Origin: Paracoccaceae bacterium | Lineage (GTDB): Bacteria; Pseudomonadota; Alphaproteobacteria; Rhodobacterales; Rhodobacteraceae | Length of the DNA stretch: 49,865 nucleotides | Direction: 5' to 3' | Assembly: GCA_038134005.1 (NCBI GenBank) | Contig: JAYPUL010000019.1 | Span: 1-49,865, forward strand | Part shown: positions 8,879 to 46,657 of the stretch, piece by piece | How positions within the stretch are numbered: position 1 is the first letter of the stretch | Layout of the letters: the number at the start of each line of letters is the position of its first letter | Program-made: the position numbers and the translations under genes | The notes under the pieces: generated by a model | The model's input: the letters and a program-made list of their open reading frames with translations, nothing else | Databases searched by the model: none | What the model was told of the DNA's origin: nothing

Positions 8879-8891
8879 TGTCTTTGGGGGG

Positions 8892-10049: not shown

Positions 10050-10051
10050 GA

Positions 10052-13384: not shown

Positions 13385-13397
13385 GTGCTTAACTTAC

Positions 13398-13429
13398 TGG
13401 TCTTAGGTCTCATCGTAAACTGGACTTAA
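13398..13429. promoter_or_regulatory. Candidate TauR operator: direct repeats CTGGTCTTAG-N12-CTGGACTTAA just upstream of the tauR start
   Basis: An exact match to CTGGACYTAA at 13420-13429 and a 2-mismatch copy at 13398-13407, 14-47 bp upstream of the tauR ATG. Lies in the divergent region shared with the HTH gene at 13620. Confidence 0.4.
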
Positions 13430-13619
13430 TGACGGGTAAGGTCAATTTTGCGAAATGCGTTAACCAATAGTTGAAATATACCTATGCGTGTATGCATAAT
13501 TGTAGCAGTAATTTAAATAATCGTGAATTTATGATAATTCTTGCGGAAAACATTGGTTTTTCGCAACTCACGGGTTATGAAAAGGAATAGATTTTACCAT
13601 CAAAATTTATTTTTTTCTG

Positions 13620-14447: not shown

Positions 14448-14474
14448 AAAGGGCGCAAGGTGACCCTTGCGCCC
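14446..14474 (-). terminator. Bidirectional intrinsic terminator (tpa / HTH gene)
   Basis: Perfect 10-bp stem GGGCGCAAGG-tgac-CCTTGCGCCC, flanked by AAAAA on the plus strand (a T-run for the minus-strand tpa transcript). Sits in the 34-bp gap between convergent stops. Confidence 0.8.
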
Positions 14475-14481
14475 GAACCAA

Positions 14482-15867: not shown

Positions 15868-16226
15868 TGGGGTATCCTTTTCTTATTGCGCACGCTACAC
15901 GCGCCAAATTCGCCATTGATGCCTATTGTCTTGAAATAGGGGGCAGAATATAGGGCCAATTTTTTGGATCAAATATGTCCAGACAGCAACCCTGCCTAAT
16001 TGCCGATAATGTCTAAGTGTATGTAAATAAATTACTAATTGTTTTTTTGTTCGCCTTGAATTCGGTGCTGCTGTATTCGAATGTGTGGAAATTGGAAATT
16101 TATTGCAGAAAAGAGTTGATCCAAAAACTGAAATAGGGTCCGATCAAGGAGACCGATCTTTGGTCCTTACCGACGCACACTGTTGCGCAATGCTTCGATA
16201 AGAAAGCACGAAAAAGGGAGTTTATA

Positions 16227-17228
16227 ATGAAAATGACGAAAAAAATCCTATCCTCTACTGCGGCCTTGGCGCTTGTTGCGTCTGCTCAAATGGCCAGCGC
16301 GGCGGATGAAATTACTGTTGCTTATTTCCTAGAATGGCCAATGCCGTTCGAATACGCAAAACAAATGGGCACCTATGATGAAGCTATGGGCGTCAAGATC
16401 AACTGGGTCAGCTTTGATTCTGGTGTGAAAATGTCTGCGGCGATGGCGTCTGGCGACGTTCAGTTGTCAGTAAGCCAAGGTGTTCCACCGTTCGTGGTTG
16501 CGACATCAGCTGGACAAGACCTTCAAATTCTTGATGTTGCTGTTAGCTATGCGGACAACGACAACTGTGTTGTGCGTTCAGATCTTGAAATCGACAAAGA
16601 TAGCGCTGGCGAATTGGCTGGCAAAAAAGTTGCCGTTCCTTTGGGAACAGCGGCGCATTACGGTTTCCTAAAGCAGATGTCACACTTTGGTGTTGACGTT
16701 GGTTCGATGGAAGTCGTTGACATGGATCCACCGGATGGCGCCGCAGCGATTGCACAAGGCTCAGTTGATATGTTCTGTGGTTGGGGTGGTTCGCTACGTC
16801 GCGCAAAAGAACATGGCAACGTCTTGTTGACGGGTGCAGAAAAAGAAGCACTTGGCATCCTTGTATTTGACGTGACATCGGGTCCAGCGGGCTGGGTCGC
16901 GGAAAATAGCGATTTGGTTGCGAAGTTTTTGAAGGTGACCGCAGATGCGAACGCAATGTGGGCCGACAGCGCAAACCACGCGACAATGTTGCCTGTGATT
17001 GCAAAAGACGCTGGTATGGATGAACAAGCAACAGCCGACACAATGGCAACATTTGTGTTCCCGACTGTTGATGAACAGCTGTCTGCCAAATGGCTTGGCG
17101 GTGGTGCGCAGGGCTTTATGAAAGGCGTCGCAGACGTTTTTGTCGGTGCAAAATCAATCGACTCAGCTTTGGATAGCTATGCAGGCGCGGTGAATACTGG
17201 TCCACTTGCTGCTGCAAAAGGTATGTAA
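16227..17228 (+). CDS. tauA: ABC transporter periplasmic substrate-binding protein (taurine/aliphatic sulfonate, NMT1/SsuA/TauA family)
   Basis: 333 aa with a Sec signal peptide ('MKMTKKILSSTAALALVASAQMASAADE'). First gene of an SBP-ATPase-permease operon. Strong SD AAAAGGGAG upstream. Confidence 0.7.
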   Translation: MKMTKKILSSTAALALVASAQMASAADEITVAYFLEWPMPFEYAKQMGTYDEAMGVKINWVSFDSGVKMSAAMASGDVQLSVSQGVPPFVVATSAGQDLQILDVAVSYADNDNCVVRSDLEIDKDSAGELAGKKVAVPLGTAAHYGFLKQMSHFGVDVGSMEVVDMDPPDGAAAIAQGSVDMFCGWGGSLRRAKEHGNVLLTGAEKEALGILVFDVTSGPAGWVAENSDLVAKFLKVTADANAMWADSANHATMLPVIAKDAGMDEQATADTMATFVFPTVDEQLSAKWLGGGAQGFMKGVADVFVGAKSIDSALDSYAGAVNTGPLAAAKGM

Positions 17229-17246
17229 GTTTTAAATCACTTATCT

Positions 17247-17277
17247 GGGCGAGGGCGTAAAACCCTTGCCCTTTTTG
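17247..17277 (+). terminator. Intra-operon attenuator/partial terminator between tauA and tauB
   Basis: Hairpin GGGCgAGGG...CCCTtGCCC (one mismatch) followed by TTTTTG, 19 nt after the tauA stop. This arrangement typically over-expresses the binding protein relative to the membrane components. Confidence 0.5.
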
Positions 17278-17296
17278 TAAACTTGAAAGGTCGAAG

Positions 17297-18103
17297 ATGA
17301 GCGGTTTGTCGATCAACAATATTTCTATGCGCTTTGGTCTTCCGAATGGAAGTTCAGTACAGGCATTGAAAAATGTTACCCTAAACCTAAAGCCTGGGGA
17401 ATTAATGTCGGTCTTGGGGCCGTCAGGGTGTGGTAAAACCACGTTGCTAAACATTGTGGCGGGGTTTTTGGCGCCAACTGAGGGTCAAATCGTTTTAGGC
17501 GGTGAGCGGGTCACAGGGCCAAGCGCAGAACGTGGAATGGTTTTTCAGCAGGGCGCGTTGTTCGAATGGATGAGCGTTCGTGAAAACGTTGGCTTTGGTC
17601 CGCGAATGAAAGGTGCCAATAAGGCAGAAACGCGTGAAAAGGTGGATCACCTTTTGGATGTTGTAGGCCTGGGCGATTTCAAAGAAAAGGCCGTGTATGA
17701 ATTGTCGGGTGGTATGCAACAACGCGTCGCATTGGCGCGGTGTTTGGCAAACGATCCTGATGTGATTTTGATGGATGAACCATTGGGCGCGCTTGATGCG
17801 TTAACCCGTGAAAAGATGCAATCTTTGGTTCTGAAGCTCTGGAAAGAAACGGGTAAGACGATCATCTTGATCACCCATTCCGTTGAAGAGGCATTGTTGT
17901 TGGGCGAACGTTTGCTGGTTATGGCACCGCGTCCTGGGCGAATTCATCGCGAATACCGTTTGCCATTTGCCGATTTGGGCGTTGGACAGGATCTGCGCGA
18001 AGTTAAAAAACATCCAGACTATGCAAAGACCCGCGAAGAAATTCTAAGCATGATTTGGGATATGGAAGAAGAAATCATGGGTAGATCGGAGGCCGCGCAA
18101 TGA
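17297..18103 (+). CDS. tauB: ABC transporter ATP-binding protein (taurine/sulfonate importer)
   Basis: 268 aa. Walker A 'GPSGCGKTT', ABC signature 'LSGGMQQRVALAR', Walker B 'ILMDEP'. Stop overlaps the tauC start. Confidence 0.85.
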   Translation: MSGLSINNISMRFGLPNGSSVQALKNVTLNLKPGELMSVLGPSGCGKTTLLNIVAGFLAPTEGQIVLGGERVTGPSAERGMVFQQGALFEWMSVRENVGFGPRMKGANKAETREKVDHLLDVVGLGDFKEKAVYELSGGMQQRVALARCLANDPDVILMDEPLGALDALTREKMQSLVLKLWKETGKTIILITHSVEEALLLGERLLVMAPRPGRIHREYRLPFADLGVGQDLREVKKHPDYAKTREEILSMIWDMEEEIMGRSEAAQ

Positions 18104-19437
18104 CCGTATTATCGCTGTTGTGGGGGGAATTGGTCGATATCACAATCCAATTCATCAAATCCTTGCCGTATTTTTTCGCCTACATCGGAATCATTCTTGC
18201 AACCCTTGCTGTATGGCGATTGGTCAAGCGTTCCTTGACGCCAAAGAAAGATTTTGGATCGTTGAAAACGGTGACATTTGGTGATGAAAGCGCGGTTTCG
18301 TCGAATTTTATTGCCTCTGTCGTTTCGGTTGTTTTGATTTTTGTGATTTGGGCATCGTTCACTGGATCACGGTTTGTCCCAACTTTTTTACATATGCCGG
18401 GTGCGTATTCGGGCGACCTTGCTTTTACTTATACCGCAGAAAATGCAGAGGGTTTGCGTGATGATGCGACGGTGCATGTCATTGTCCATAAACTGGGTGA
18501 AGAGCCGACATTGCCTGACGTCGATGAAGGGGATGGATGGGCCAAAAATGATGTTTTGGCTGTTCAAAGTTATCGAAGCAAATTGTTATTGTGGGACAAA
18601 AACGACGAATTCAATCGTAAGTCTGGTGCAAAAATCGTTGCGATTAATGGCCAATCCGTCACGGAAGGGGCATCTATTGACATTGAAAACGGACGTGTCG
18701 CTATTACTGACAAGGGCACGATCAACGTCGAACCCGCCACAGGATGGCAAATGGAGCCGATTTGGCTACCTGCACCTGAAAGCGTTTTCGTGTTCCGCTT
18801 GCGGCAGATTTGGTCAGACGGATACAAGAACTATTCACTGGGTGAACATCTGGGGTATTCTTTATTCCGTGTGGTTGTCGGGTTCTTATTCGGCGCGTTG
18901 ATCGGCATTCCGCTGGGCTATGCGATGGGATTGAACGATTGGTTCCGCGGTTGGTTCGATCCGATTGTTGAATTCATGCGTCCTGTGCCGCCGCTTGCGT
19001 TGATCCCTCTGATCATCATTTGGTTTGGCATTGGTGAAGTGGGCAAGGTGATCTTGCTAACCCTCGCCGCGCTTTGGATCATGACGATTGCGGCGCGTGC
19101 AGGTGTGTCGGGTGTGCGGATTTCAAAGGTGCATGCCGCCTATTCCCTGGGTGCCAGCAAATGGCAAATCATGCGGTTTGTTATTGTTCCAAATTCACTG
19201 CCCGAAATCTTTACCGGTGCGCGTGTTGCGATGGGCGTATGTTGGGGAACAGTTGTGGCTGCTGAATTGGTTGCTGCGGAAAAGGGTATCGGTATGATGA
19301 TCATGACCGCTTCAAAATTCCAACAAACCGACATTGTTATCCTTGGTATCGTGATCATCGGTATCATCGGCTTTGGTATCGACATGTTCGTGCGTTGGCT
19401 GGAACGCGTCTTGGTCCCATGGAAAGGTCGCGGGTAA
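18100..19437 (+). CDS. tauC: ABC transporter permease (TauC/SsuC-type) with an unusual ~220-aa N-terminal extension
   Basis: 445 aa. The C-terminal ~230 aa carry the permease core including an EAA-like loop ('...AELVAAEKGIGMMI...'). The N-terminal region has two predicted TM helices flanking a soluble ~130-aa insert. ATGA coupling with tauB. Confidence 0.7.
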   Translation: MTVLSLLWGELVDITIQFIKSLPYFFAYIGIILATLAVWRLVKRSLTPKKDFGSLKTVTFGDESAVSSNFIASVVSVVLIFVIWASFTGSRFVPTFLHMPGAYSGDLAFTYTAENAEGLRDDATVHVIVHKLGEEPTLPDVDEGDGWAKNDVLAVQSYRSKLLLWDKNDEFNRKSGAKIVAINGQSVTEGASIDIENGRVAITDKGTINVEPATGWQMEPIWLPAPESVFVFRLRQIWSDGYKNYSLGEHLGYSLFRVVVGFLFGALIGIPLGYAMGLNDWFRGWFDPIVEFMRPVPPLALIPLIIIWFGIGEVGKVILLTLAALWIMTIAARAGVSGVRISKVHAAYSLGASKWQIMRFVIVPNSLPEIFTGARVAMGVCWGTVVAAELVAAEKGIGMMIMTASKFQQTDIVILGIVIIGIIGFGIDMFVRWLERVLVPWKGRG

Positions 19438-19617: not shown

Positions 19618-20091
19618 ATGTCCATCACCACTGCGCCAAATCAATCAGATATGGTTGATCTGATCTCATCGCACCTTGACCTAGAAGGGCCTTTGTTGCC
19701 GATTTTGCATGCACTGCAACATGCCTATGGGCATATTCCTGCAATGGCGAATGATCTTATTGCTGATGCGTTGAATATCACCAAGGCCGAAGTCCACGGC
19801 GTGATCAGCTTTTACCACGATTTTCGTGAAAAACCTGCGGGCAAACATGTTGTTAAGATATGCCGTGCTGAGGCATGTCAATCGGTCGGTGGTAATGTAC
19901 TGGCCGAAGATACCTTAAAAAAACTAGGCCTTGATTGGCATGAGACATCGGCAAACGGTGCGATAACAATTGAACCTGTCTATTGTTTGGGGCTGTGTGC
20001 CTGCGCGCCTGCGGTTATGGTGGATGATCAATTGCTTGCCCGCGTAGATGGCCCAAAAATGGATGCAGTATTAAAGGAGCTGGGCGCATGA
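19618..20091 (+). CDS. fdsG: NAD-dependent formate dehydrogenase gamma subunit (NuoE-like, 2Fe-2S)
   Basis: 157 aa thioredoxin-like 2Fe-2S protein with 'CRAEACQSVG' and 'CLGLCACAPAVMV' cysteine motifs. SD CAAGGA. Stop overlaps the fdsB start. Confidence 0.8.
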   Translation: MSITTAPNQSDMVDLISSHLDLEGPLLPILHALQHAYGHIPAMANDLIADALNITKAEVHGVISFYHDFREKPAGKHVVKICRAEACQSVGGNVLAEDTLKKLGLDWHETSANGAITIEPVYCLGLCACAPAVMVDDQLLARVDGPKMDAVLKELGA

Positions 20092-21605
20092 AAATCTATG
20101 TTCCTTTAGACAGCGCCGCAATCGCGCTTGGGGCTGATGCTGTCGCCACGGCAATAGCGTCCGAGGCGGCGAACCGCAAAATCGATGTACAAATTGTGCG
20201 AAACGGTTCGCGCGGCATGGTATGGTTGGAACCATTGGTCGAAATCGAAACCGAACAGGGCCGCATCGGATATGGAAATGTGGATGCATCCCAAGCAGGT
20301 GCTTTGTTGGATGGAAAGCTATCTAGCCTTGGCAAAATCGAAGATATTCCGTTTTTTGCCCGTCAAACCCGTTTGACCTTTGCGCGCTGTGGCGTCATTG
20401 ATCCGCTGGATTTGGACGACTATCAGGCACATGGTGGTCTTGCTGGTTTACGGCGCGCTGTTGCAATGACCCAAAATGACATCGTTGCCGAAGTCACCGC
20501 ATCGGGTTTGCGTGGGCGCGGCGGGGCTGGGTTCCCGACGGGCATCAAATGGAAAACTGTGTCCGACGCGTCGGCCGATCAGAAATACATCGTCTGCAAC
20601 GCCGACGAAGGCGACAGTGGGACGTTCGCCGACCGTATGATCATGGAGGGCGATCCGTTTTCGTTGATCGAAGGCATGGCAATCGCCAGCCTTGGTGTGG
20701 GCGCGACCAAAGGATACGTTTACTTGCGGTCTGAATACCCGGTTGCCATTCGCGTGATGCGCTCCGCGGTGGATGCGGCGCGTCAAGGTGGCGTTTTAGG
20801 GGCGAATGTTCTTGGGTCAGGTCGCGCGTTCGACATGGAAATCCGTGTTGGTGCGGGCGCCTATGTTTGCGGAGAAGAAACCGCATTGCTGAATTCATTG
20901 GAAGGCAAGCGCGGCACCGTGCGTGCGAAACCGCCACTCCCCGCATTGGAAGGGTTCCTTGGCCGTCCCACAGTTGTGAACAACGTGATCAGCTTGGCAT
21001 CGGTTCCGGTCATTTTTGAAAAAGGCGCGGACCATTACGCGTCCTTTGGTGTCGGTCGGTCGCGCGGAACTGTGACGCTTCAAATCGCTGGCAATGTAAA
21101 ACAGGGCGGTTTGTTTGAAACGGGCTTTGGCTTGCCGCTTGGTGAATTGGTCAATGACATCGCCGGCGGTACCGCCAGCGGACGCCCCGTAAAAGCGGTT
21201 CAGGTCGGTGGCCCATTAGGCGCCTATATGCCTGTTTCGAAATTTGATACGCCTTTGGGATATGAAGAATTTGACCAAAATGGCGGTCTCATCGGTCATG
21301 CGGGTTTGGTCGTGTTCGATGACAGCGCGGATATGTTGCAAATGGCACGCTTCGCGATGGAATTCTGTGCGGTCGAAAGCTGTGGCAAATGTACGCCGTG
21401 CCGCATAGGTGCGGTCCGTGGCGTGGAAACAATCGACCGCATTGCCCAAGGCGATGCAGATGCGATTCCGTTGCTGACCGACTTGTGTGAAACTATGAAA
21501 GATGGATCGTTGTGCGCATTGGGTGGGTTTACCCCATTCCCGGTGATGTCGGCGCTGACCCATTTCCCAGAAGATTTTCCAGCCTTCAAAGAGGCCGCGG
21601 AATGA
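20088..21605 (+). CDS. fdsB: NAD-dependent formate dehydrogenase beta subunit (NuoF-like; FMN/NADH-binding, 4Fe-4S)
   Basis: 505 aa. NuoF motifs 'GAGAYVCGEETALLNSLEGKRG' and the C-terminal 4Fe-4S 'ESCGKCTPCRIG'. Confidence 0.85.
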   Translation: MKIYVPLDSAAIALGADAVATAIASEAANRKIDVQIVRNGSRGMVWLEPLVEIETEQGRIGYGNVDASQAGALLDGKLSSLGKIEDIPFFARQTRLTFARCGVIDPLDLDDYQAHGGLAGLRRAVAMTQNDIVAEVTASGLRGRGGAGFPTGIKWKTVSDASADQKYIVCNADEGDSGTFADRMIMEGDPFSLIEGMAIASLGVGATKGYVYLRSEYPVAIRVMRSAVDAARQGGVLGANVLGSGRAFDMEIRVGAGAYVCGEETALLNSLEGKRGTVRAKPPLPALEGFLGRPTVVNNVISLASVPVIFEKGADHYASFGVGRSRGTVTLQIAGNVKQGGLFETGFGLPLGELVNDIAGGTASGRPVKAVQVGGPLGAYMPVSKFDTPLGYEEFDQNGGLIGHAGLVVFDDSADMLQMARFAMEFCAVESCGKCTPCRIGAVRGVETIDRIAQGDADAIPLLTDLCETMKDGSLCALGGFTPFPVMSALTHFPEDFPAFKEAAE

Positions 21606-21814
21606 GCGACGTCAAAGGACCCGCGTCCTATTTCCCATCGATTGAAAAGAAATATGGCCAACCCATCCAGCATTGGTTGGATCTGGCCGCGACCAAATCC
21701 GATTTGAAACATATGGAAATCGTCGCTTGGTTGAAAACCGAATTTAGCCTTGGGCACGGGCATGCAAACGCCATCGTTGCCTATGTATTGGCTGGCCTGA
21801 AAAAGGGGGCATGA
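21602..21814 (+). CDS. Small DUF4287-like protein inserted between fdsB and fdsA
   Basis: 70-aa ORF 'MSDVKGPASYFPSIEKKYGQPIQHWLDL...HMEIVAWLKTEFSLGHGHANAIVAYVL...'. ATGA overlap with the fdsB stop (ATG 21602-21604). The 'IVAWLK...GLGHGHANAIV' signature matches what I recall of DUF4287. Followed 2 nt later by the fdsA start. Confidence 0.6.
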   Translation: MSDVKGPASYFPSIEKKYGQPIQHWLDLAATKSDLKHMEIVAWLKTEFSLGHGHANAIVAYVLAGLKKGA

Positions 21815-21815
21815 C

Positions 21816-24716
21816 ATGAAAGATTTTATTATCCCATGGACCGATGATCGTGATCGGGGTACACCTGCGGCGCATGGCGCACCCGTGACATTGACCATTG
21901 ACGGCACCGAAGTCACCGTGCCCGAGGGAACGTCGATAATGCGGGCGTCTGCTTTGGCTGGTATTTCTGTGCCAAAGCTTTGCGCAACCGACAGCATCGA
22001 AGCATTCGGGTCTTGCCGTCTGTGTGTCGTCGAAATCGAAGGTCGCCGTGGCACGCCAGCGTCCTGTACGACACCTGTCGCGGCGGGCATGGTGGTGCAC
22101 ACCCAATCGTCCAAAGTGCGTAAAATCCGCAAGGGCGTGATGGAACTTTATATCTCTGACCACCCGTTGGATTGCTTGACCTGTTCGGCAAATGGCGATT
22201 GCGAATTGCAAGACATGGCTGGTGCTGTTGGCCTCCGCGATGTTCGGTATGAAGCCCCCAAAGACGGCGCATTTGTTAACCATTTCGAGGTGCGTGATAC
22301 ATCTGGCGAAGCGAACCCAGATTATTTGCCCTGCGATACATCAAACCCCTATTTCAACTATGATCCCAGCAAATGTATCGTGTGCAACCGCTGTGTGCGT
22401 GCCTGTGAAGAGGTGCAAGGCACCTTTGCCCTGACCATTGAAGGACGTGGATTTGATAGCCGCGTTTCTGCCGGTGGCGGAAGCGACAATTTCCTATCCT
22501 CGGATTGTGTGAGCTGTGGCGCCTGTGTCCAAGCCTGCCCAACAGGAACATTGGTCGAAAAATCGGTGGTCGAGCTGGGTACGCCGGAACGTTCTGTCGT
22601 GACCACTTGCGCCTATTGTGGTGTTGGATGTTCGTTCAAAGCTGAAATGCAGGGCGATCAATTGGTTCGCATGGTTCCATTCAAAAACGGTTCTGCGAAC
22701 CGGGGTCATTCCTGTGTGAAGGGTCGCTTTGCCTATGGTTATGCAACACATCAGGATCGCATCCTAAATCCAATGATCCGCGACACAATTGATGAACCAT
22801 GGCGCGAAGTCAGCTGGGACGAAGCATTAACATTCACGGCAACCAAGCTTCGTGGATTACAAGAAAAATATGGCAAAAAGTCCGTTGGTGTAATTACGTC
22901 TAGCCGTTGTACCAACGAAGAAACCTACTTGGTTCAAAAATTGACCCGTGCGGTCTTTGGCAACAACAACACCGACACCTGCGCACGCGTGTGCCATTCA
23001 CCCACGGGCTATGGTTTGGGCCAAACCTTTGGCACGTCTGCGGGGACACAGGACTTTGACAGCGTCGAACATACGGATGTTGTGATCGTGATTGGTGCAA
23101 ATCCGACCGATGGGCACCCAGTGTTCGCATCGCGCCTGAAAAAACGTTTGCGTAAAGGCGCGAAATTGATCGTGATCGACCCACGTCGCATTGATTTGGT
23201 GAAATCCGCCCATATCGCCGCCGCGCATCACCTACCACTTAGACCTGGCACAAACGTGGCTGTTGTCACCGCCTTGGCTCATACCATCGTCACCGAAGGT
23301 TTGATGGACGAAGAGTTCATTCGCACCCGTTGTGATTGGGACGAATTCCAAGAATACGCTGAATTCGTGTCCCAAGATCGCCATAGCCCTGAGGCGACAG
23401 AATTGCTAACCGGAGTGCCGTCGGCAGAATTGCGCGCCGCGGCCCGTTTGTTTGCCAAAGGCGGCAATGGCGCGATCTATTACGGTTTGGGCGTGACCGA
23501 ACATAGCCAAGGGTCAACAACCGTAATGGGCATCGCCAACCTTGCCATGTTGACCGGGAATATTGGTCGCAAAGGTGTGGGCGTAAACCCGTTGCGTGGC
23601 CAAAACAACGTGCAAGGTTCCTGTGACATGGGATCATTCCCACATGAATTGCCCGGCTATCGCCACGTGAAATTGCCCGAGGTTCGCGCAATTTTCGAAA
23701 ATGCGTGGGGTGTCGAAATTGACCCAGAACCCGGTTTGCGCATTCCAAATATGTTGGATGCGGCCGTCGATGGTACGTTCAAAGCGCTCTATTGCCAAGG
23801 CGAAGATATCTTGCAATCTGACCCCGACACGAAACATGTGGCCGCTGGTTTGGCCGCGATGGAATGTGTGATCGTGCATGACCTGTTTCTGAACGAAACG
23901 GCGAACTATGCGCATGTCTTTTTGCCGGGTTCAACATTCTTGGAAAAAGATGGCACATTCACCAACGCCGAACGCCGCATTAACCGTGTGCGTCGCGTGA
24001 TGGCACCACGCAATGGCTATGCCGATTGGGAAGTCACCCAAATGCTGGCCAATGCTATGGGGGCCGGGTGGTCCTATACCCACCCGAGCGAAATCATGGC
24101 CGAAATCGCCGCGACAACGCCATCTTTTGCAAACGTTACTTACGACCTGTTAGAGGAACGCGGTTCCGTTCAATGGCCGTGTAACGACGCAAACCCGGAC
24201 GGTACACCATTGATGCATGTCGATGGATTTGTGCGCGGTAAGGGGCGGTTTATCGTCACCGAATATGTGGCGACCGATGAACGCACGGGGCCACGTTTCC
24301 CACTGTTGTTGACGACAGGGCGTATCTTGTCACAATACAACGTGGGGGCCCAAACACGGCGCACGCAAAACGTCGTCTGGCATGATCAGGATGTGTTGGA
24401 AATTCACCCTCATGATGCGGAAAACCGTGGGATAAATGATGGTGATTTTGTCAAACTGGCATCGCGGTCCGGCGACACCAGTTTGCGCGCCAAAATCACG
24501 GATCGCGTGTCACCAGGCGTTGTTTATACGACATTCCACCACCCCGATACGCAGGCCAACGTCATTACCACCGATTATTCGGATTGGGCAACGAACTGTC
24601 CTGAATACAAGGTCACTGCTGTTCAGGTCAGCCTGTCGAACGGCCCGACAGATTGGCAAGAGGATTATAACGCACAAGCGGAACGGTCGCGCCGTATTCT
24701 GCCCGCTGCGGAATAA
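21816..24716 (+). CDS. fdsA: NAD-dependent formate dehydrogenase alpha subunit (NuoG-like N-terminus plus bis-MGD molybdopterin domain)
   Basis: 966 aa. N-terminal 2Fe-2S ferredoxin fold ('CATDSIEAFGSCRLCVVEI'), several 4Fe-4S cysteine clusters, a molybdopterin oxidoreductase domain and a C-terminal MopB_CT-like domain. Confidence 0.85.
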   Translation: MKDFIIPWTDDRDRGTPAAHGAPVTLTIDGTEVTVPEGTSIMRASALAGISVPKLCATDSIEAFGSCRLCVVEIEGRRGTPASCTTPVAAGMVVHTQSSKVRKIRKGVMELYISDHPLDCLTCSANGDCELQDMAGAVGLRDVRYEAPKDGAFVNHFEVRDTSGEANPDYLPCDTSNPYFNYDPSKCIVCNRCVRACEEVQGTFALTIEGRGFDSRVSAGGGSDNFLSSDCVSCGACVQACPTGTLVEKSVVELGTPERSVVTTCAYCGVGCSFKAEMQGDQLVRMVPFKNGSANRGHSCVKGRFAYGYATHQDRILNPMIRDTIDEPWREVSWDEALTFTATKLRGLQEKYGKKSVGVITSSRCTNEETYLVQKLTRAVFGNNNTDTCARVCHSPTGYGLGQTFGTSAGTQDFDSVEHTDVVIVIGANPTDGHPVFASRLKKRLRKGAKLIVIDPRRIDLVKSAHIAAAHHLPLRPGTNVAVVTALAHTIVTEGLMDEEFIRTRCDWDEFQEYAEFVSQDRHSPEATELLTGVPSAELRAAARLFAKGGNGAIYYGLGVTEHSQGSTTVMGIANLAMLTGNIGRKGVGVNPLRGQNNVQGSCDMGSFPHELPGYRHVKLPEVRAIFENAWGVEIDPEPGLRIPNMLDAAVDGTFKALYCQGEDILQSDPDTKHVAAGLAAMECVIVHDLFLNETANYAHVFLPGSTFLEKDGTFTNAERRINRVRRVMAPRNGYADWEVTQMLANAMGAGWSYTHPSEIMAEIAATTPSFANVTYDLLEERGSVQWPCNDANPDGTPLMHVDGFVRGKGRFIVTEYVATDERTGPRFPLLLTTGRILSQYNVGAQTRRTQNVVWHDQDVLEIHPHDAENRGINDGDFVKLASRSGDTSLRAKITDRVSPGVVYTTFHHPDTQANVITTDYSDWATNCPEYKVTAVQVSLSNGPTDWQEDYNAQAERSRRILPAAE

Positions 24717-25525
24717 TGACAAAGGACGCTGTTCAATCGCAATCCGCGACAACCTGTGATGCGAACGGTGCATCACAGGTTTTTCGCGATCTAGCTGTGG
24801 AAACAGCGGTCGCCGTTTCGATCAACGGAACGACTCATGCCGTCATGATGGCAAGCCCCACTGACCTGCGCGACTTCGCGTTGGGTTTTGCGTTTACCGA
24901 AAGCATCATTACCACGCTGGACCAAGTTCAATCTTTGGAAATTCTTGAACATGATACTGGGCTTGAGGCACGGTTTTGGTTATCCGACGATACCGCGCGC
25001 CCGTTTTTGTCGCGCCGTCGCGCGATGGCTGGTCCTGTGGGGTGTGGTCTTTGTGGGATCGACAGCTTGGAACAAGCTGTGCGTCCATTGCCGGTCGTAA
25101 CGGATACAGACATGGCTATTGAAACGAAATTGATCGCCACTGCGACGGATCAACTTCGGATGCATCAGCCATTACACGATCAAACACATGCCGCACACGC
25201 AGCAGGATTTTTGACAAAAGACGGAAACGTGATCCTTGCGCGCGAAGATGTCGGGCGCCACAACGCTCTTGATAAGCTCATCGGCGCAATGATCGATAGA
25301 AACTTGGACCCTACGAACGGTGCATTCGTTTTGACGTCTCGCATCTCTGTTGAAATGGTCCAAAAAACAGCGTTTGCTGGCTGTCCAATGATTATTGCGG
25401 CTTCGGCCCCCACCACGCATGCCTTAATGCTCGCTCGCGATGCAAATATTACACTGTGTGCATCTGCGCGTGCTGGGCGTTTTGATTGCTATTCCCATCC
25501 CTTCAGATTGAAAGGAAATTCATAA
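24716..25525 (+). CDS. fdhD: Formate dehydrogenase accessory sulfurtransferase FdhD (FdsC)
   Basis: 269 aa with the conserved FdhD cysteine loop ('...GPVGCGLCGIDS...'). Start overlaps the fdsA stop. Confidence 0.8.
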   Translation: MTKDAVQSQSATTCDANGASQVFRDLAVETAVAVSINGTTHAVMMASPTDLRDFALGFAFTESIITTLDQVQSLEILEHDTGLEARFWLSDDTARPFLSRRRAMAGPVGCGLCGIDSLEQAVRPLPVVTDTDMAIETKLIATATDQLRMHQPLHDQTHAAHAAGFLTKDGNVILAREDVGRHNALDKLIGAMIDRNLDPTNGAFVLTSRISVEMVQKTAFAGCPMIIAASAPTTHALMLARDANITLCASARAGRFDCYSHPFRLKGNS

Positions 25526-36964: not shown

Positions 36965-37064
36965 TAATAATCCGATTATTGATAAAATTAATCCCGTCGT
37001 GGTGACCTCCTGAAATTAATACAACTTTAGGCAGGTAACGTTTTTGTGATTTTCAAGAGAAAGT

Positions 37065-37090
37065 GGGGTCCCAGCCCCCGCTGGAACCCC
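37065..37090. other. GC-rich hairpin in the 436-bp divergent intergenic region
   Basis: 11-bp stem GGGGTCCCAGC/GCTGGaACCCC (one mismatch) with loop CCCC. Not positioned as a terminator for any flanking gene. Confidence 0.35.
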
Positions 37091-37400
37091 TGTCACCCCA
37101 CGCGCTCCCACAAACACGTTGGTTAAGGATCCAGCCGTCCTAGCCGATAAAAATACGATAACTGATCTTGCGATCTGTTCCAAGAAAAGCTTAGATCAAA
37201 ATTGAATAAAAGGCGCGGTGACTTTTTGGTCTTGGATGCGGTCTTGTACCGAAATTGTAACAGACGAAACGTCAACCATTGCTTTTTGATCAAATTCTGA
37301 ATTATCTTCCAGCGGAGGACATTCGGATTATGTTGATCGCAATTGGAAACATCAGAATCGGGCGATCACATGGCCAGATTTATACAGACAGGGGATTGTT

Positions 37401-38267
37401 ATGAATTATCATACGCCATCTAGCTTTTCGGACGCGGCGCAAATCGCATACGGAACTACGGGTGTGACGCGCTTTTTGGCAGGCGGAACAGATGTGTTGG
37501 TCCAGATGCGTGCAGGCGCAGTGACGCCTGACGATATAATTGACATTAAACACATCGACGGTGTTGGTGACATCACACGTACCGCTGATGGGGGTTTCGT
37601 CATTGGCGCGGCTGTTTCTGGTGCACAAATGGGGGCGCATGCGGATTTAGTTGCAGCATGGCCCGGCGTTGTCGAAGGTATGGAATTGGTTGGATCCACC
37701 CAGGTACAAGGACGCGCCACATTGACGGGAAATCTTTGCAATGGATCGCCCGCCGCTGATAGCGTTCCAGGAATGGTTGCCGCCGGTGCAACCGTGAAGG
37801 TTGTGGGCGTAAATGGCGCGCGTGATGTTGCGATAGAAGACATTCCAGCGGGCCCAGGTCGGTCAAACCTCGTTAAAGGTGACGTGATTGCATCAATTAC
37901 TCTACCCGCCCGCGGACAGGGTGGCGGTGATGCGTATCTACGATTCACGCCGCGCACTGAAATGGATATTGCTGTTGTTGGGTGCGCGATAAACTTGACG
38001 GTTGATGGCGATACGATCACTTCGGCACGTGTTGCGTTGGGGGCGGTTGCGCCGACTGTAATTTTGGTGCCTGACGCCGCGAACGCCATAGTCGGGACAA
38101 CTTTGGATGACGCAGCCATCGCATCATTGATCGATGCGGTAAGCGCGGCAGCCAAACCTATTTCAGATAAACGCGGCACGGCAGAGTTCCGCAAAGACGT
38201 TGTTGGCGTTTTGGCCAAGCGTGTTGCAAAAATCGCCTATGCGCGCGCTAAAGGAGAAGCAGTATGA
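37401..38267 (+). CDS. FAD-binding medium subunit of a xanthine dehydrogenase/aldehyde oxidase-family molybdenum hydroxylase (CoxM/CutM-like)
   Basis: 288 aa with an FAD-binding PCMH-type domain ('...FLAGGTDVLVQMR...') and a CO-dehydrogenase-flavoprotein C-terminal-like domain. Stop overlaps the small-subunit start. Confidence 0.8.
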   Translation: MNYHTPSSFSDAAQIAYGTTGVTRFLAGGTDVLVQMRAGAVTPDDIIDIKHIDGVGDITRTADGGFVIGAAVSGAQMGAHADLVAAWPGVVEGMELVGSTQVQGRATLTGNLCNGSPAADSVPGMVAAGATVKVVGVNGARDVAIEDIPAGPGRSNLVKGDVIASITLPARGQGGGDAYLRFTPRTEMDIAVVGCAINLTVDGDTITSARVALGAVAPTVILVPDAANAIVGTTLDDAAIASLIDAVSAAAKPISDKRGTAEFRKDVVGVLAKRVAKIAYARAKGEAV

Positions 38268-38743
38268 GCAAAGTACATGTATCCACCACTGTAAACGGTG
38301 AAGCGGTCGAATTTTTGGCTGATACACGTGACAGTCTGTTGGACAGCCTGCGTGATAGTCTGGGATTAACAGGCACAAAAGAAGGATGTGGTACCGGGGA
38401 CTGTGGTGCCTGTTCTGTGCGCGTCGATGGCACGTTGGTGTGTTCCTGTTTGATGTTGGGCGTGGAAGCGCAAGGCAAGGAAATCGAAACAATCGAAGGC
38501 ATGGCAAGCGGCGATACATTGCACCCCTTGCAACAAAAGTTCATTGAACATGCCGCATTGCAATGTGGTTTCTGCACACCAGGCATTTTGGTTGCATCAA
38601 AAGCTTTGTTGGAAAAAAATCCTGATCCAACCGAAGAAGAAGTGCGTTATTGGTTGGCGGGCAATCTGTGCCGCTGCACTGGTTACGATAAAATTATTCG
38701 CGCGGTCATGGATGCCGCCGAAGAAATGCGGGGGGCTGCATAA
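38264..38743 (+). CDS. [2Fe-2S]-binding small subunit (CoxS/CutS-like)
   Basis: 159 aa. Plant-type ferredoxin motif 'CGTGDCGACSV' and the second 2Fe-2S motif 'CGFCTPG...CRCTGY'. Confidence 0.85.
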   Translation: MSKVHVSTTVNGEAVEFLADTRDSLLDSLRDSLGLTGTKEGCGTGDCGACSVRVDGTLVCSCLMLGVEAQGKEIETIEGMASGDTLHPLQQKFIEHAALQCGFCTPGILVASKALLEKNPDPTEEEVRYWLAGNLCRCTGYDKIIRAVMDAAEEMRGAA

Positions 38744-40983
38744 TGGCTAAAGATACCAACACATCCGATTTCCGTTATATTGGTTCGCGCCCTGCGCGCC
38801 CTGATGGATTGGACAAAGTCACCGGTCGCGCCCGTTATGGTGCGGATATTGCGGCCGCGAACATGTTGCACGCGGCAGTTTTACGATCACCACATGCCCA
38901 CGCGCGGATTGTGAAAATTGACACATCCAAAGTCGAAGCATTGAAAGGTGTGAAAGCGATCGTGACGCGTGCCGATTTTCCAACTGGTTTGACAGGCGAA
39001 GATTGGGATTTGCAAGAAAACACGATGGCGGGTGAGCGTGCTTTGTATGATGGGCATGCGGTTGCCGCGATTGCTGCGACATCGCCTCATATTGCGCGTG
39101 ATGCTGTCAAATTGATCGAGGTCGAATATGAAATTCTACCACATGTAATCGATGTCGATGACGCAATGGCGGATGGTGCGCCCGTTATTCGTGAAGGTGC
39201 TGCGAACAAAACCGTTCCAGAAGGCATGCATCCAAATGTTGTGAAATACATCGAATTTGGTCACGGTGATGTGGAAGATGGCTTTGCCAAGGCTGATTTG
39301 GTGATGGAACGTCACTATAAAACCGAAGCCACGCACCAAGGTTACATTGAACCCCATGCATGTATGGCCCAATTGGGCGCCGATGGCAAAGGTGAGATGT
39401 GGGTTTGTACGCAAGGGCATTGGTACATCCGTCGCATGTGTGCAGCCGTATTAGGGCTGGATACAGCGCAACTGCGTGTGACCGCTTCTGAAATCGGTGG
39501 CGGTTTTGGCGGGAAAACCACGATCTTTATGGAGCCTTTAGCGCTTGCGCTTAGCCGTAAATCTGGCGGGCGCCCGGTAAAGTTGGTTATGTCACGTTCT
39601 GAAGTTTTGCGCGCAACAGGCCCAACGGCGTCTGCGTCGATGGATGTGAAAATCGGCATGACCAAAGATGGCATGTTAACTGCGGGCGTTGCGAATTTCC
39701 GCATGCAGGGCGGCGCTTTCCCGGGGTCGCCGGTGGATATGGCGCTTTATTGTGCGTTTGCACCTTATCAGGTGCCAGCATTGCAACACATTGGGTATGA
39801 CGTTTTGGCAAACCGTCCAAAATGTGCCGCTTACCGTGCGCCCGGGTCCCCCATGGGTGCCTTTGCGGTCGAAAGCTTGATTGACGAAATGGCGACTGAA
39901 CTTGGGTTGGACCCAATGCAGGTCCGCATGAAAAACGGATCAAAATCAGGTGACCAATCCAGCTATGGTCCCAAATTCGGCGTCATCGGATTAGAAGAAA
40001 CTTTGGCCGCAACCCAAGCACATCCAAACCTATCTTTCCCGCTTGGTCCTAACCAAGGGCGTGGCATTGCGGCCGGTTATTGGTTTAACCATGGTGGGGA
40101 AACCTCGGTCTCTGTTGCGTTGTCCGAAGATGGCACGGTTCAGGTGTCTGTTGGCACCCCCGACATCGGCGGAAGCCGTGCATCAATGGCATTGATGGCG
40201 GCCGAAACATTGGGGATCCCCTATGAAAATGTCCGCGTCAATATTGCGGAAACGGGATCTTTGGGTGTCAATGAACCCACCCACGGCAGCCGAGCGACAT
40301 TTGCATCAGGAAAAGCGATGCATGGTGCATTGACCCAAGCGATCAATGAAATGTGCCGCCGTGCAGCGGGTAAATGGAAAATCGATCCCGAGGCCGTCGA
40401 ATGGAAAGACGGCGCAGCCGTCCCCGCCGGGCCAAACGCGGGGCAGTTTCCACCGATGACAATCCAAGAGATTGCGCGCAAAATGAAAAACACCGGTGGT
40501 CCAATTTCTGGTCACCATGAATCGGTTCCAGACGGGGTTGGCGACAGCTTTGGCGCGCACGTTGTTGACGTCGAAGTTGATCCAGAAACCGGTCATACAA
40601 AAATCCTGCGTTACTTGGTCGTCCAAGACGCAGGCCGTGCGATCCACCCGTCCTATGTCGAAGGCCAATACCAAGGTGGCGCGGTTCAAGGCATCGGTTG
40701 GGCGTTGAACGAAGAATACGTTTATGACGATATGGGGCGTTTGCAAAACCCAATCTTCTTGGATTACCGCGTGCCTGTGGCGTCCGATTTGCCCATGATT
40801 GACACCGTGATTGTCGAGGTTCCAAACCCTGGCCATCCATTTGGTGTGCGTGGTGTCGGTGAAACGGGGATCACCCCGCCATTGCCTGCGATTGCGAACG
40901 CTGTTGCTGCCGCGACGGGCGTACGCATCCGCCATTTGCCAATTACACCAACAAAATTGTTGGCTGCAATTAAGGCAAAATAA
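38743..40983 (+). CDS. Molybdopterin-binding large subunit of a xanthine dehydrogenase-family enzyme (not a form-I CO dehydrogenase)
   Basis: 746 aa. 'GGGFGGK' Mo-cofactor motif ('EIGGGFGGKTT'). It has 'AYRAPG' where bona fide CoxL has the AYXCSFR active-site loop, so the substrate is unknown (aldehyde or N-heterocycle). Confidence 0.8.
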   Translation: MAKDTNTSDFRYIGSRPARPDGLDKVTGRARYGADIAAANMLHAAVLRSPHAHARIVKIDTSKVEALKGVKAIVTRADFPTGLTGEDWDLQENTMAGERALYDGHAVAAIAATSPHIARDAVKLIEVEYEILPHVIDVDDAMADGAPVIREGAANKTVPEGMHPNVVKYIEFGHGDVEDGFAKADLVMERHYKTEATHQGYIEPHACMAQLGADGKGEMWVCTQGHWYIRRMCAAVLGLDTAQLRVTASEIGGGFGGKTTIFMEPLALALSRKSGGRPVKLVMSRSEVLRATGPTASASMDVKIGMTKDGMLTAGVANFRMQGGAFPGSPVDMALYCAFAPYQVPALQHIGYDVLANRPKCAAYRAPGSPMGAFAVESLIDEMATELGLDPMQVRMKNGSKSGDQSSYGPKFGVIGLEETLAATQAHPNLSFPLGPNQGRGIAAGYWFNHGGETSVSVALSEDGTVQVSVGTPDIGGSRASMALMAAETLGIPYENVRVNIAETGSLGVNEPTHGSRATFASGKAMHGALTQAINEMCRRAAGKWKIDPEAVEWKDGAAVPAGPNAGQFPPMTIQEIARKMKNTGGPISGHHESVPDGVGDSFGAHVVDVEVDPETGHTKILRYLVVQDAGRAIHPSYVEGQYQGGAVQGIGWALNEEYVYDDMGRLQNPIFLDYRVPVASDLPMIDTVIVEVPNPGHPFGVRGVGETGITPPLPAIANAVAAATGVRIRHLPITPTKLLAAIKAK

Positions 40984-40984
40984 C

Positions 40985-41230
40985 ATGGTGACGGTGAACC
41001 TGTGGTCTGGGTTGCGACGTTTTACGGATGGCGAATTAGCGATCCAAGTCGAAGCGCAGACCATTGGCGATATGCTAGATGCCTTGGTCGGGAAATATCC
41101 CGGCCTTGGCCCTATTTTTGAAGACGGAATTTCGGTTGCTATCGATGGTGATGTGATGCCGGCCGACACAAGCAAATCAATTTCCCCAGAAAACGAAATC
41201 TTTCTGTTACAACAAATGAAGGGCGGTTAA
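40985..41230 (+). CDS. MoaD/ThiS-family ubiquitin-like sulfur-carrier protein (C-terminal Gly-Gly)
   Basis: 81 aa 'MVTVNLWSGLRRFTDGELAIQVEAQTIGDMLDALVGKYPGLGPIFEDG...IFLLQQMKGG', which is the MoaD pattern with a GG terminus. ATG 40985 lies 1 nt after the large-subunit stop. The track ORF 40811..41230 is an upstream in-frame extension overlapping coxL. Confidence 0.7.
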   Translation: MVTVNLWSGLRRFTDGELAIQVEAQTIGDMLDALVGKYPGLGPIFEDGISVAIDGDVMPADTSKSISPENEIFLLQQMKGG

Positions 41231-41330
41231 AGAACCGCCAATTTGTCGCAGATCTTTCCGTGATTTAAATATATTAAAAATTGAATATGTATTTTATGTA
41301 TAGGTCATAATTTAAGGTTAGGAGACCAAA

Positions 41331-41687
41331 ATGGCCTATACAACAAAATTCCAAGCGATGGCCGATGCGGCGTGTGCGCGTGTCGAAAACGTAAATCCCG
41401 AAGATGTTGCCACATTGTTGGCCGCGGGCGCGTTTGCATTGGACATTCGTGATCCAGACGAACATGCGAACGGTCATATTCCGTCTTCGATTAACGTAAG
41501 CCGCGGCAAGCTAGAAATGAACATCGAAGGCGTGCTGCCAGATCTTGATACGGTTATCTTATGTTATTGTAACGCAAACAATCGTGGTGCTTTGTCTGCG
41601 GCCAGTTTGAAAGACATGGGTTATTCAAATGCAAAGTTCATCTCCGGTGGCCTGAACGCATGGAAAAAGTTAAACGACATCGCCTAG
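41331..41687 (+). CDS. Single-domain rhodanese (sulfurtransferase)
   Basis: 118 aa with the active-site Cys loop '...ILCYCNANNRGALSAA...'. SD AGGAGA. Preceded by a 100-bp AT-rich promoter-like region. Confidence 0.75.
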   Translation: MAYTTKFQAMADAACARVENVNPEDVATLLAAGAFALDIRDPDEHANGHIPSSINVSRGKLEMNIEGVLPDLDTVILCYCNANNRGALSAASLKDMGYSNAKFISGGLNAWKKLNDIA

Positions 41688-45103: not shown

Positions 45104-46657
45104 ATGACCGATGATTGGCAATCCACAGCTCCGCGTCGATCCGCCCGTGCCGGCGGACGTGATGCAAAACGTGCTATGCGCATGGCGCCGCTGGCCGAAG
45201 AATTGCGCCCAATACGCGCAGGCCTTCCAGGGGGGGCATACCGCCCACTGACGCAGGCGGGAATGGAACAAATTCATGCCGCCGCGTTGGATGCGTTAGA
45301 GCAAATTGGCCTTTCTCAGGCACCTAAATCGGGTGTGGATGCAATGGTTGCGGCGGGGGCATTACTTGGGGATGATGGTCGGCTTAGGTTTCCGCGTGCA
45401 TTGGTCGAGGATATGTTGGCCAAAGCGTCGCGTGATATTACTTTGTTCGGACGCGATCCAAAATATGACCTGCATTTGACCGGAACAAATGTTCATTTCG
45501 GAACCGCTGGCGCAGCTGTTCACATTGTGGATGTGTTGACAAACACATACCGCGATTCAACCGCCCAAGATTTGTATGATGCCGCGCGTTTGACGCACAA
45601 TTTGGATAACGTTCATTTTTTCCAACGCGCAATGGTATGTCGTGATGTGATTGACAACCTCGAAATGGATTTGAATACGATTATGGCCTGTTGTTCGGGC
45701 ACGTCCAAACACGTTGGCACGTCGTTTTCAGATCCAAGTCACGTTGCGCCATGTATGGATATGATCCATACCATTGCAGGTGGGGAAGAAGCATGGCGCG
45801 CGCGCCCATTTATTTCAAATTCGAATTGCTTCGTTGTGCCACCCATGAAATTTGCCGAAGAAAGCTGTATCGCGATGGAACATTGTATCCGTGCGGGCAT
45901 GCCGGTTTTATTGTTGTCGGCCGGACAGGCCGGCGCGACTGCGCCAGCACCGATCGCCTTAGCAATCGTCCAAGCGGTTGCTGAATGTTTGGCAGGTGTG
46001 GTTTATGTCAATTCGATCAAACCGGGTCACCCTGCAATATTCGGGACTTGGCCCTTTGTGTCCGATCTCCGCACAGGTGCAATGTCAGGGGGATCGGCAG
46101 AACAGGCGTTGTTGACCGCAGGTTGTGCGCAAATGCACCAATTCTATGGTTTGCCTGGTGGTGCCGCTGCTGGCATCAGCGATGCAAAACTTCCAGATAT
46201 GCAGGCGGGTTGGGAACAGGGTATCACGAATACTTTGGCTGGCCTATCTGGTTTGAACATGGTTTATGAATCCGTTGGAATGCATGCATCGCTGTTAGGA
46301 TTCTGTTTGGAATCCTTGGTATTGGGTGACGACATTTTGGGCCAAGTTTTGCGCACAGTGCGCGGCATTGATGTCACGCCTGACAGCGTTTCAATTGATG
46401 TCATGAAAGAGGTTTGCTTGGGTGGTCCTGGACATTATCTTGGTGCGGATCAAACACGCGCTTTGATGCAGACGGAATATGTCTATCCAACCGTCGGCAA
46501 TCGCATGAGTCCAAAAGAATGGGTCGAGGCAGACCGACCAATTTTGATCGACAAAGCGATCGAACGGAAAAACGAAATTCTGTCCCGCGCAAAAAGCACG
46601 ATCGATCCGTTGATCGATGCAAAACTGCGTAAAACTTATAACATCTTTTTTCAATAA
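45104..46657 (+). CDS. MttB-superfamily (trimethylamine methyltransferase-like) protein, non-pyrrolysine type; probably a quaternary-amine:corrinoid or THF methyltransferase
   Basis: 517-aa uninterrupted ORF with no in-frame TAG. MttB-family TIM-barrel features, including a Gly-rich region '...GGSAEQALLTAGCAQM...'. Confidence 0.7.
   Translation: MTDDWQSTAPRRSARAGGRDAKRAMRMAPLAEELRPIRAGLPGGAYRPLTQAGMEQIHAAALDALEQIGLSQAPKSGVDAMVAAGALLGDDGRLRFPRALVEDMLAKASRDITLFGRDPKYDLHLTGTNVHFGTAGAAVHIVDVLTNTYRDSTAQDLYDAARLTHNLDNVHFFQRAMVCRDVIDNLEMDLNTIMACCSGTSKHVGTSFSDPSHVAPCMDMIHTIAGGEEAWRARPFISNSNCFVVPPMKFAEESCIAMEHCIRAGMPVLLLSAGQAGATAPAPIALAIVQAVAECLAGVVYVNSIKPGHPAIFGTWPFVSDLRTGAMSGGSAEQALLTAGCAQMHQFYGLPGGAAAGISDAKLPDMQAGWEQGITNTLAGLSGLNMVYESVGMHASLLGFCLESLVLGDDILGQVLRTVRGIDVTPDSVSIDVMKEVCLGGPGHYLGADQTRALMQTEYVYPTVGNRMSPKEWVEADRPILIDKAIERKNEILSRAKSTIDPLIDAKLRKTYNIFFQ

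Follow-up and report, generated by a model that had tools for sequence, protein, structure and literature searches.

Introduction

Genes for MoaD-family sulfur carriers have been described beside the pterin enzymes that they may serve. MoaD genes are "strictly adjacent" to the genes of tungsten AOR enzymes and have been suggested to produce molybdopterin for that enzyme (Iyer, Burroughs & Aravind 2006, PMC1779556); two MoaD-like genes, aorD and aorE, are part of the AOR operon in Aromatoleum aromaticum (PMC6365974), and in Thermococcus GAPOR depends on a MoaD-family ubiquitin-like protein (Ubl), the UblB-type TK2118, for its tungsten cofactor (PMC11323500). For the xanthine dehydrogenase (XDH) family, a review of enzyme maturation gives XdhC-type chaperones as the usual need and contains no occurrence of the word "MoaD" (PMC2997495). 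Here we describe a MoaD-like gene, D, that directly follows the genes for the medium (M), small (S) and large (L) subunits of an XDH-family enzyme on a 49,865-nucleotide contig of a Paracoccaceae bacterium (assembly GCA_038134005.1, contig JAYPUL010000019.1; the whole contig stretch analyzed is called the window). We found no description of an M-S-L-D module, or of an XDH-family-linked MoaD, in the literature, which is not proof that the literature holds none. Judged by gene order and predicted protein family, M-S-L-D shows that the concept of an enzyme-linked MoaD, so far tied to tungsten AORs, also applies to the molybdenum hydroxylases.

Organization of the M-S-L-D module

All five open reading frames (ORFs) reported by an initial annotation of this region, with D beginning 1 nt after the L stop codon and ending in Gly-Gly (GG), were confirmed on the sequence. 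Four of them make up the module:

37401-38267, + strand, M, 288-aa FAD-binding medium subunit, XDH family
38264-38743, + strand, S, 159-aa [2Fe-2S] small subunit, its start overlapping the M stop by 4 nt
38743-40983, + strand, L, 746-aa molybdopterin-binding large subunit, its start overlapping the S stop
40985-41230, + strand, D, 81-aa MoaD/ThiS-family beta-grasp protein (predicted) with a C-terminal Gly-Gly

The TAA stop codon of L occupies positions 40981-40983 and the ATG of D begins one base later, at 40985, with an AAGG Shine-Dalgarno-like motif for D lying within the end of L. By this layout, M-S-L-D is one predicted co-transcribed and translationally coupled unit.

D is thus strictly adjacent to a pterin-enzyme gene in the manner of the AOR-linked MoaD genes, the enzyme being an XDH rather than an AOR. 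In both cases the gene for a GG protein adjoins the gene of a pterin enzyme, lies outside the main molybdenum cofactor (Moco) operon and would, by proposal, act for the cofactor of that enzyme; the partner is a tungsten AOR in one case and a xanthine-oxidase-family molybdenum hydroxylase in the other. AOR neighborhoods also often hold MoeB, MoaE, MoaA or a pyridine-disulfide oxidoreductase, whereas none of these recurs around M-S-L-D. In position D resembles the XdhC/PaoD/CoxF chaperones, whose genes occupy the place of a dedicated maturation gene at the end of XDH-family operons. XdhC, however, is of an unrelated fold and family, binds Moco and uses cysteine desulfurase persulfide, whereas D would be a carrier of the Ubl type.

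Linkage of D to M-S-L across genomes

When GTDB species, each represented by one genome (n = 185,579), were searched by pattern scan, 181 of them proved to encode a D relative. The best 80 of these 181 loci were retrieved with 10-kb flanks and compared with the window proteins by tblastn; almost all come from Rhodobacterales, with a few from Hyphomicrobiales. D is positioned immediately 3′ of M-S-L orthologues in every retrieved locus that has upstream DNA (~80 species), the orthologues being 61–75% (M, ~70 loci), 75–84% (S) and 67–83% (L) identical to those of the window. The distance from the L stop to the D start falls between −20 and +12 nt in 78/84 loci, an 8-nt overlap being the commonest arrangement, and the terminal GG of D is found in all of them (84/84). 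This neighborhood survey, with D next to M-S-L throughout, upholds the earlier proposal that the MoaD-like gene belongs with the XDH-family operon.

A search with an alignment of distant family members yielded more remote D relatives, four of which were checked. The order M-S-L-D is kept in an Actinomycetia bin and in two unassigned contigs, and the fourth, also an unassigned contig, carries an M-S fusion, L, one intervening gene and D. The fused gene of contig L094 (2180-3517) encodes a 445-aa protein, and the gene between L and D lies on the opposite strand and is periplasmic-binding-protein-like. L homologues at 35–40% identity had no D alongside in two cases: a lone L gene on a Thermomicrobium roseum plasmid, and an M-S-L operon on Sinorhizobium meliloti pSymB that is followed by a gene for a GTP-binding protein. 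As L homologues at or below 40% identity lack D, D marks one orthologous enzyme subfamily.

The module is also found by tblastn on plasmids, namely the megaplasmid of Ruegeria pomeroyi DSS-3 and plasmids of Marivivens and Sinorhizobium, including S. meliloti 1021 pSymA. The R. pomeroyi copy (SPO_RS21915-21930), in which D overlaps L by 8 nt, is 69% (M), 80% (S), 69% (L) and 43% (D) identical to that of the window. On pSymA L is 57% identical and D ends in GG, with LWGSL in place of LWSGL. According to a study of R. pomeroyi, its chromosome carries moaD (SPO3634) next to moaE (SPO3633), as well as thiS and xdhABC with xdhC, and transposon mutants in the chromosomal moaD and moaE show fitness defects (PMC10041152). 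Since R. pomeroyi has a separate moaD-moaE pair, D is an extra paralogue there and not the housekeeping MoaD, and the megaplasmid D gives no obvious sign of standing in for MoaD in the conditions of that study. The initial annotation had allowed that D might be merely a housekeeping moaD; this does not hold for the orthologous case of R. pomeroyi DSS-3, with its D on the megaplasmid and moaD-moaE on the chromosome.

We looked for maturation partners in the same neighborhoods. The window ORFs that are 150 aa or longer include neither moaE nor moeB nor xdhC, and no E1 gene was found in the window or in the conserved neighborhood. No XdhC is linked to the module in 72 loci, and MoaE was not seen beside D in any locus examined. 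The earlier remark that the module comes with neither an XdhC/CoxF/CoxI maturation gene nor moaE therefore holds across the compared loci. All-against-all clustering of the flanking ORFs (~75 loci) identified no conserved gene other than M, S, L and D. When the two ORFs closest to the module on either side (136 downstream, 111 upstream) were scanned with Pfam, no family was found in more than 7 ORFs, and XdhC, ThiF/MoeB, MoaE, MoaA, pyridine-disulfide oxidoreductase and Rhodanese were not among the recurrent families. An Aminotran_5 gene was observed in 5 loci, accompanied in one clade by a ScfR-type regulator.

D as a member of the MoaD/ThiS family

By profile, predicted fold and C-terminal GG (…LLQQMKGG), D is a genuine MoaD/ThiS-family protein. 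Its match to Pfam ThiS (PF02597) exceeds the gathering score by a narrow margin (25.2 bits, cut-off 22.5, E = 2.4e-5), and most of its homologues carry a precomputed PF02597 match. Profile assignment of the 81-aa ORF, which the initial annotation had put forward as a check, thus gives PF02597 and no bacterial moaD equivalog in NCBIfam (no match at E ≤ 0.1). D remains far under the cut-offs of SAMP1 (NF041918, 18.5 against 60) and archaeal MoaD (TIGR01687, 16.8 against 49.5).

A single-sequence search returned 79 homologues, all 80–86 aa long. In an alignment of 29 of these the residues L6-W-S-G-L10, G16, T26, P39, L41, G48, G55 and the terminal GG are invariant, and most close relatives have a basic residue ahead of the GG (K/R-G-G). 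The family numbers more than 2000 clusters at 90% identity, and its closest members belong to marine Rhodobacterales and rhizobia. A search with the family profile yielded 1785 clusters at 90% identity (E ≤ 0.1), and an exhaustive hidden Markov model search of 1.84 billion representatives gave, at 50% identity, 842 clusters at E ≤ 0.001 and 111 at E ≤ 1e-10. Nearly all full-length members are ~81 aa long and end in GG.

Seven distant family members (P0257, P0259, P0260, P0273, P0274, P0306 and P0317) continue for 6–40 residues past the GG. These tails could mark precursors that need proteolytic exposure of the GG, or could simply reflect miscalled stops; none was seen in the loci close to the window (0/84).

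The AlphaFold2 model of D has a mean pLDDT of 91.4, with low confidence at the C-terminal tip. Its top Foldseek matches are SAMP1, CysO and the MoaD proteins of Mycobacterium tuberculosis, human and Escherichia coli (TM 0.7–0.8), with ThiS and ubiquitin ranking lower; against E. coli MoaD (1fm0_D) the TM score is 0.76 at 17% identity. A profile search of the PDB ranks a Thermus MoaD-related protein first (1v8c, E = 9.5e-6), followed by SAMP1 and CysO. D contains no Cys or His residue and hence binds no metal cluster. Its median pairwise dN/dS of 0.35 (69 loci) indicates purifying selection, yet a looser one than expected of a core enzyme. The original reading of the ORF as a MoaD/ThiS-like Gly-Gly protein is consistent with the Pfam match, the homologues, the AlphaFold2 and Foldseek results and dN/dS alike.

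Within this family, D shares with canonical MoaD (E. coli 1fm0 and 1jw9, R. pomeroyi SPO3634) a length of ~81 aa, the beta-grasp and the C-terminal GG. In contrast to canonical MoaD, it is 17% identical to the E. coli protein, is not located beside moaE and coexists with a canonical moaD in R. pomeroyi. On three counts, the lack of an equivalog match, the lack of a moaE pairing and the separate moaD of R. pomeroyi, D falls outside the canonical bacterial MoaD. The SAMP1 and UblB-type Ubls (Haloferax 3po0, Thermococcus TK2118) include its best sequence and fold matches and, in Thermococcus, an enzyme-specific paralogue; D differs from SAMP1 and archaeal MoaD in being bacterial and in scoring far below both models.

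The enzyme encoded by M-S-L

Each Pfam domain of M, S and L scores far above its cut-off, and together they describe an XDH-family heterotrimer: FAD_binding_5 (PF00941, 119.6 bits) and CO_deh_flav_C (PF03450, 89.3 bits) in M, Fer2_2 (PF01799, 111.6 bits) and Fer2 (PF00111, 34.1 bits) in S, and the Ald_Xan_dh_C hammerhead (PF01315), MoCoBD_1 (PF02738) and MoCoBD_2 (PF20256) in L. S has no signal peptide. From these features M-S-L is a predicted cytoplasmic heterotrimeric molybdenum hydroxylase of the xanthine oxidase family.

None of the three subunits reaches the NCBIfam equivalog cut-off for XdhA, PucD, 4-hydroxybenzoyl-CoA reductase, PaoC or glyceraldehyde dehydrogenase. M is under all cut-offs (best XdhB, 187 against 310), and so is L (best 4-hydroxybenzoyl-CoA reductase alpha, 4hydrxCoA_A, 466 against 995). 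The solved chain nearest to L is 4-hydroxybenzoyl-CoA reductase (1rm6_A, 320 bits), followed by CoxL, KdhL and Qor. The motifs TQ224G, GGGFGGK (252-258), AYR (363-365) and GVGE707 are present in L, including those with the active-site Glu and Gln. We take the GVGE glutamate and the TQG glutamine to have the catalytic roles typical of sulfurated hydroxylases. With TQ224G, GGGFGGK, AYRAPGS and GVGE707, L therefore looks like an ordinary sulfurated Mo hydroxylase.

Form-I carbon monoxide dehydrogenase (CoxL) was considered and rejected: L scores 276 against a cut-off of 991 with CO_dehy_Mo_lg and has AAYRAPGS at 362-369 and no AYXCSFR loop, the absence of which had been recognized in the initial annotation.

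Gene context led to no substrate assignment; the neighborhoods vary among genomes. Two gene families occur near the module in a few genomes only: the tryptophan 2,3-dioxygenase family, upstream in two loci of which one is that of R. pomeroyi, and the Asp/Glu-racemase family, downstream in R. pomeroyi as well as on S. meliloti pSymA:

1955-2794 and 9452-10186 of locus L087, R. pomeroyi megaplasmid, context genes of the tryptophan 2,3-dioxygenase and Asp/Glu-racemase families
10052-12745 of locus L091, S. meliloti pSymA, context with the Asp/Glu-racemase-family gene downstream of the module

These neighbors are possible, weak hints at an N-heterocycle or hydantoin-type substrate.

Possible roles of D

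We put at about even the chances that D is a dedicated MoaD-type sulfur carrier for supplying or maturing the cofactor of its cognate M-S-L enzyme, a reading that draws on gene linkage and on the analogy with AOR. A housekeeping MoeB-type E1 would adenylate the C-terminus of D in trans, a general persulfide pool would convert it to a thiocarboxylate, and D would then pass its sulfur on to the molybdenum cofactor of the cognate enzyme during synthesis or maturation. The presumed target could be the dithiolene sulfurs, in which case D would have to dock on the housekeeping MoaE, or a step later in maturation such as the terminal Mo=S.

Several observations weigh against a dedicated carrier. D is 17–23% identical to the solved MoaD proteins, which places its docking on MoaE and MoeB in doubt, and the need for a private MoaD beside a housekeeping copy is unexplained. 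The conserved neighborhood includes no E1, MoaE, cysteine desulfurase or rhodanese, so that all partners would be needed in trans. D also diverges faster than M, S and L (43% versus 69–80% identity to R. pomeroyi), which fits a looser accessory role as well. Finally, the status of D as an extra paralogue is established in R. pomeroyi, not in the organism of the window.

It is rather unlikely, in our estimate, that D is instead a non-catalytic accessory protein, such as an assembly chaperone, a plug or a loose fourth subunit, in which the beta-grasp is used for protein contact. The translational coupling of D to L suggests equimolar output, and both the faster evolution of D relative to the catalytic subunits and the lack of an E1 or MoaE partner encoded nearby suit such a role. 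The GG end, kept in 84/84 loci and in the distant branches, is however hard to explain without C-terminal chemistry, and in the related AOR case the MoaD-like proteins were not found in the purified enzyme (PMC6365974).

A more specific proposal is that D is the source of the terminal sulfido (Mo=S) ligand, with sulfur taken from the cell's general pool and no part played by the nearby rhodanese, and so replaces the route through XdhC and cysteine desulfurase. According to the maturation review, sulfuration and insertion in XDH-family enzymes usually call for an XdhC-type chaperone (PMC2997495), and none is linked in 72 loci. Tight translational coupling of D to L points the same way, as do the GVGE glutamate and TQG glutamine kept by L, presumably signs of a sulfurated hydroxylase. 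The xdhC located elsewhere in the R. pomeroyi genome, however, could serve in trans, and we know of no thiocarboxylate that sulfurates a Mo centre. We consider it improbable that the D thiocarboxylate is a direct Mo=S donor, that is, an XdhC-independent, ubiquitin-like route of Moco sulfuration; if true, this chemistry would be new and would account for the lack of an XdhC.

With SAMP1 and CysO among the best sequence and fold matches, and K/R-G-G at the end of most close relatives, D could also be a SAMP-like ubiquitin-like modifier conjugated to proteins, or a small-molecule sulfur carrier of the CysO/QbsE kind. We find this very unlikely: no E1, JAMM protease, cysteine synthase or acyl-AMP ligase is conserved nearby, the SAMP1 model gives D 18.5 bits against a cut-off of 60, and the three enzyme subunits are the sole invariant partners of D.

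The downstream rhodanese

The remaining features on this side of the module are as follows:

41222-41239, no strand assigned, inverted repeat GGCGGTT-aaag-AACCGCC, overlapping the D stop codon
41331-41687, + strand, 118-aa single-domain cytoplasmic rhodanese with Cys80

The inverted repeat may mark the end of the operon, as a weak terminator or an RNA-stability element, and has no clear T-run on the + strand. A spacer of 100 bp separates D from the rhodanese. The initial annotation had called this spacer AT-rich and promoter-like; its length and AT-richness stand, but a consensus scan called no sigma-70-like site in it, and the counts of promoter-like and terminator-like sites in the region are not above shuffle expectation.

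The rhodanese is a single-domain protein (PF00581, 66.9 bits) with Cys80 in a CNANNRG loop, in agreement with the intact catalytic Cys first noted for this 118-aa ORF; it has its own AGGAG Shine-Dalgarno sequence and no signal peptide. In NCBIfam it comes nearest to PRK08762-type MoeB, through the rhodanese domain at the N-terminus of that model (79.9 bits, well short of the cut-off for the whole protein), and tblastn finds the rhodanese parts of annotated MoeB/ThiF proteins at 35–40% identity. It has in common with the rhodanese-E1 fusions (MOCS3/Uba4, MoeZ, PRK08762-type MoeB) a similar rhodanese domain, and differs from them in standing alone without an adenylation domain and in not being conserved beside D.

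A rhodanese follows D only in the species of the window and one close relative (L002-L007), and no homologue occurs within 10 kb of D in ~75 other species. The closest plasmid homologue, 70% identical, is found on a Neotabrizicola shimadae plasmid at the end of a cluster (L096, 431-6348) that also encodes an MBL-fold hydrolase, a TIGR01244 sulfurtransferase, a fusion of a tyrosine-phosphatase-family domain with an NAD(P)/FAD-dependent oxidoreductase, SulP and a methyltransferase. We read the bifunctional phosphatase/FAD-oxidoreductase as SQR-like, an assignment of our own. This context suggests a role of this rhodanese family in oxidizing or handling sulfide or persulfide.

The initial annotation had made the rhodanese a member of the system, in a local relay in which a dedicated rhodanese passes persulfide to D and the D thiocarboxylate passes sulfur on to Mo=S or the dithiolene. 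The 100-bp proximity in the window and its closest relatives, the likeness to the rhodanese domains fused to MoeB and the lack of an XdhC gene alongside the module would fit such a relay. The adjacency is nevertheless confined to one lineage, Rhodanese is not a recurrent neighbor family, the 70% homologue resides in a sulfide/persulfide-oxidation cluster, and the rhodanese has its own Shine-Dalgarno sequence and is separated from D by the hairpin of the inverted repeat. We hold the relay to be highly doubtful and reject a partnership of this rhodanese with D, as the adjacency is not conserved and the context of the homologue is unrelated. From its distribution the rhodanese is judged to be an independent, general-purpose sulfurtransferase and a chance or lineage-specific neighbor of D; like any rhodanese, it might nonetheless provide sulfur in trans to any E1.

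Other molybdoenzymes and the housekeeping MoaD

The window encodes two other molybdoenzymes, a formate dehydrogenase with FdhD and an enzyme of the dimethyl sulfoxide (DMSO) reductase family; the organism must therefore make Moco. That need, and the label "molybdopterin synthase sulfur carrier subunit" that some sources give to D, are compatible with D being the genome's housekeeping MoaD, placed after this operon by chance, but we regard this as barely credible given the separate moaD-moaE of R. pomeroyi beside its orthologous module, the lack of moaE next to D in the loci examined and of a match to the bacterial moaD equivalog, the frequent plasmid location of the module and the restriction of D relatives to 181 of 185,579 species genomes in the pattern scan.

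The formate dehydrogenase operon is of the NAD type (19618-25525, + strand) and encodes a thioredoxin-like 2Fe-2S protein, a Nuo51-like protein and Fdh-alpha (943 bits, above cut-off). It ends with the accessory sulfurtransferase FdhD (188 bits, above cut-off), and so a second molybdoenzyme of the window does carry a classical dedicated sulfuration factor.

Other features of the window

Upstream of the module we note two features:

36965-37400, + strand, 436-bp non-coding region, presumed operon promoter, between a divergent SPFH/Band7 gene and M
37065-37090, 26-nt GC-rich hairpin with 11 pairs, 5′ of M

Neither a Moco riboswitch nor any other Rfam family was found upstream of M at the gathering score, and the promoter-like sites detected there do not outnumber those expected from shuffled sequence. 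The hairpin weakly resembles the Bradyrhizobiaceae small RNA BjrC68, below threshold (19 bits versus 39).

A sulfonate/taurine-type cluster extends over 2417-19437 on both strands. It includes the sulfoacetaldehyde acetyltransferase Xsc (10052-11845; 924 bits, above cut-off), acetate kinase, a citrate-synthase-II-like gene, a MocR-type GntR regulator, a class-III aminotransferase and a TauA-like ABC transporter. Within the same cluster, 2417-6839 (minus strand) encodes a Mo subunit of the DMSO reductase family, a 4Fe-4S subunit and a DmsC-like anchor, a trio that by its architecture resembles the sulfite dehydrogenase SoeABC.

PYLIS_3 is the pyrrolysine insertion sequence of mttB. An Rfam match to it (46177-46274, + strand; 46.9 bits, gathering score 38) lies within ORF 45104-46657, which encodes an uninterrupted 517-aa MttB-family protein with no in-frame stop. 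The match is probably conserved coding sequence of a non-pyrrolysine MttB homologue rather than a functional PYLIS.

Discussion

Maturation of the XDH family is thought to rest on XdhC-type chaperones and cysteine desulfurase persulfides, yet a large subfamily has neither in cis. For sulfur-carrier paralogues like D, the annotation "molybdopterin synthase sulfur carrier subunit" is wrong. The presence of the module in two genetically tractable models, R. pomeroyi DSS-3 and S. meliloti 1021, makes the question directly testable. The D-linked subfamily hints at a route of cofactor supply or maturation that is as yet unstudied, and more broadly D might represent a novel class of factors, each maturing the cofactor of a particular molybdenum hydroxylase.

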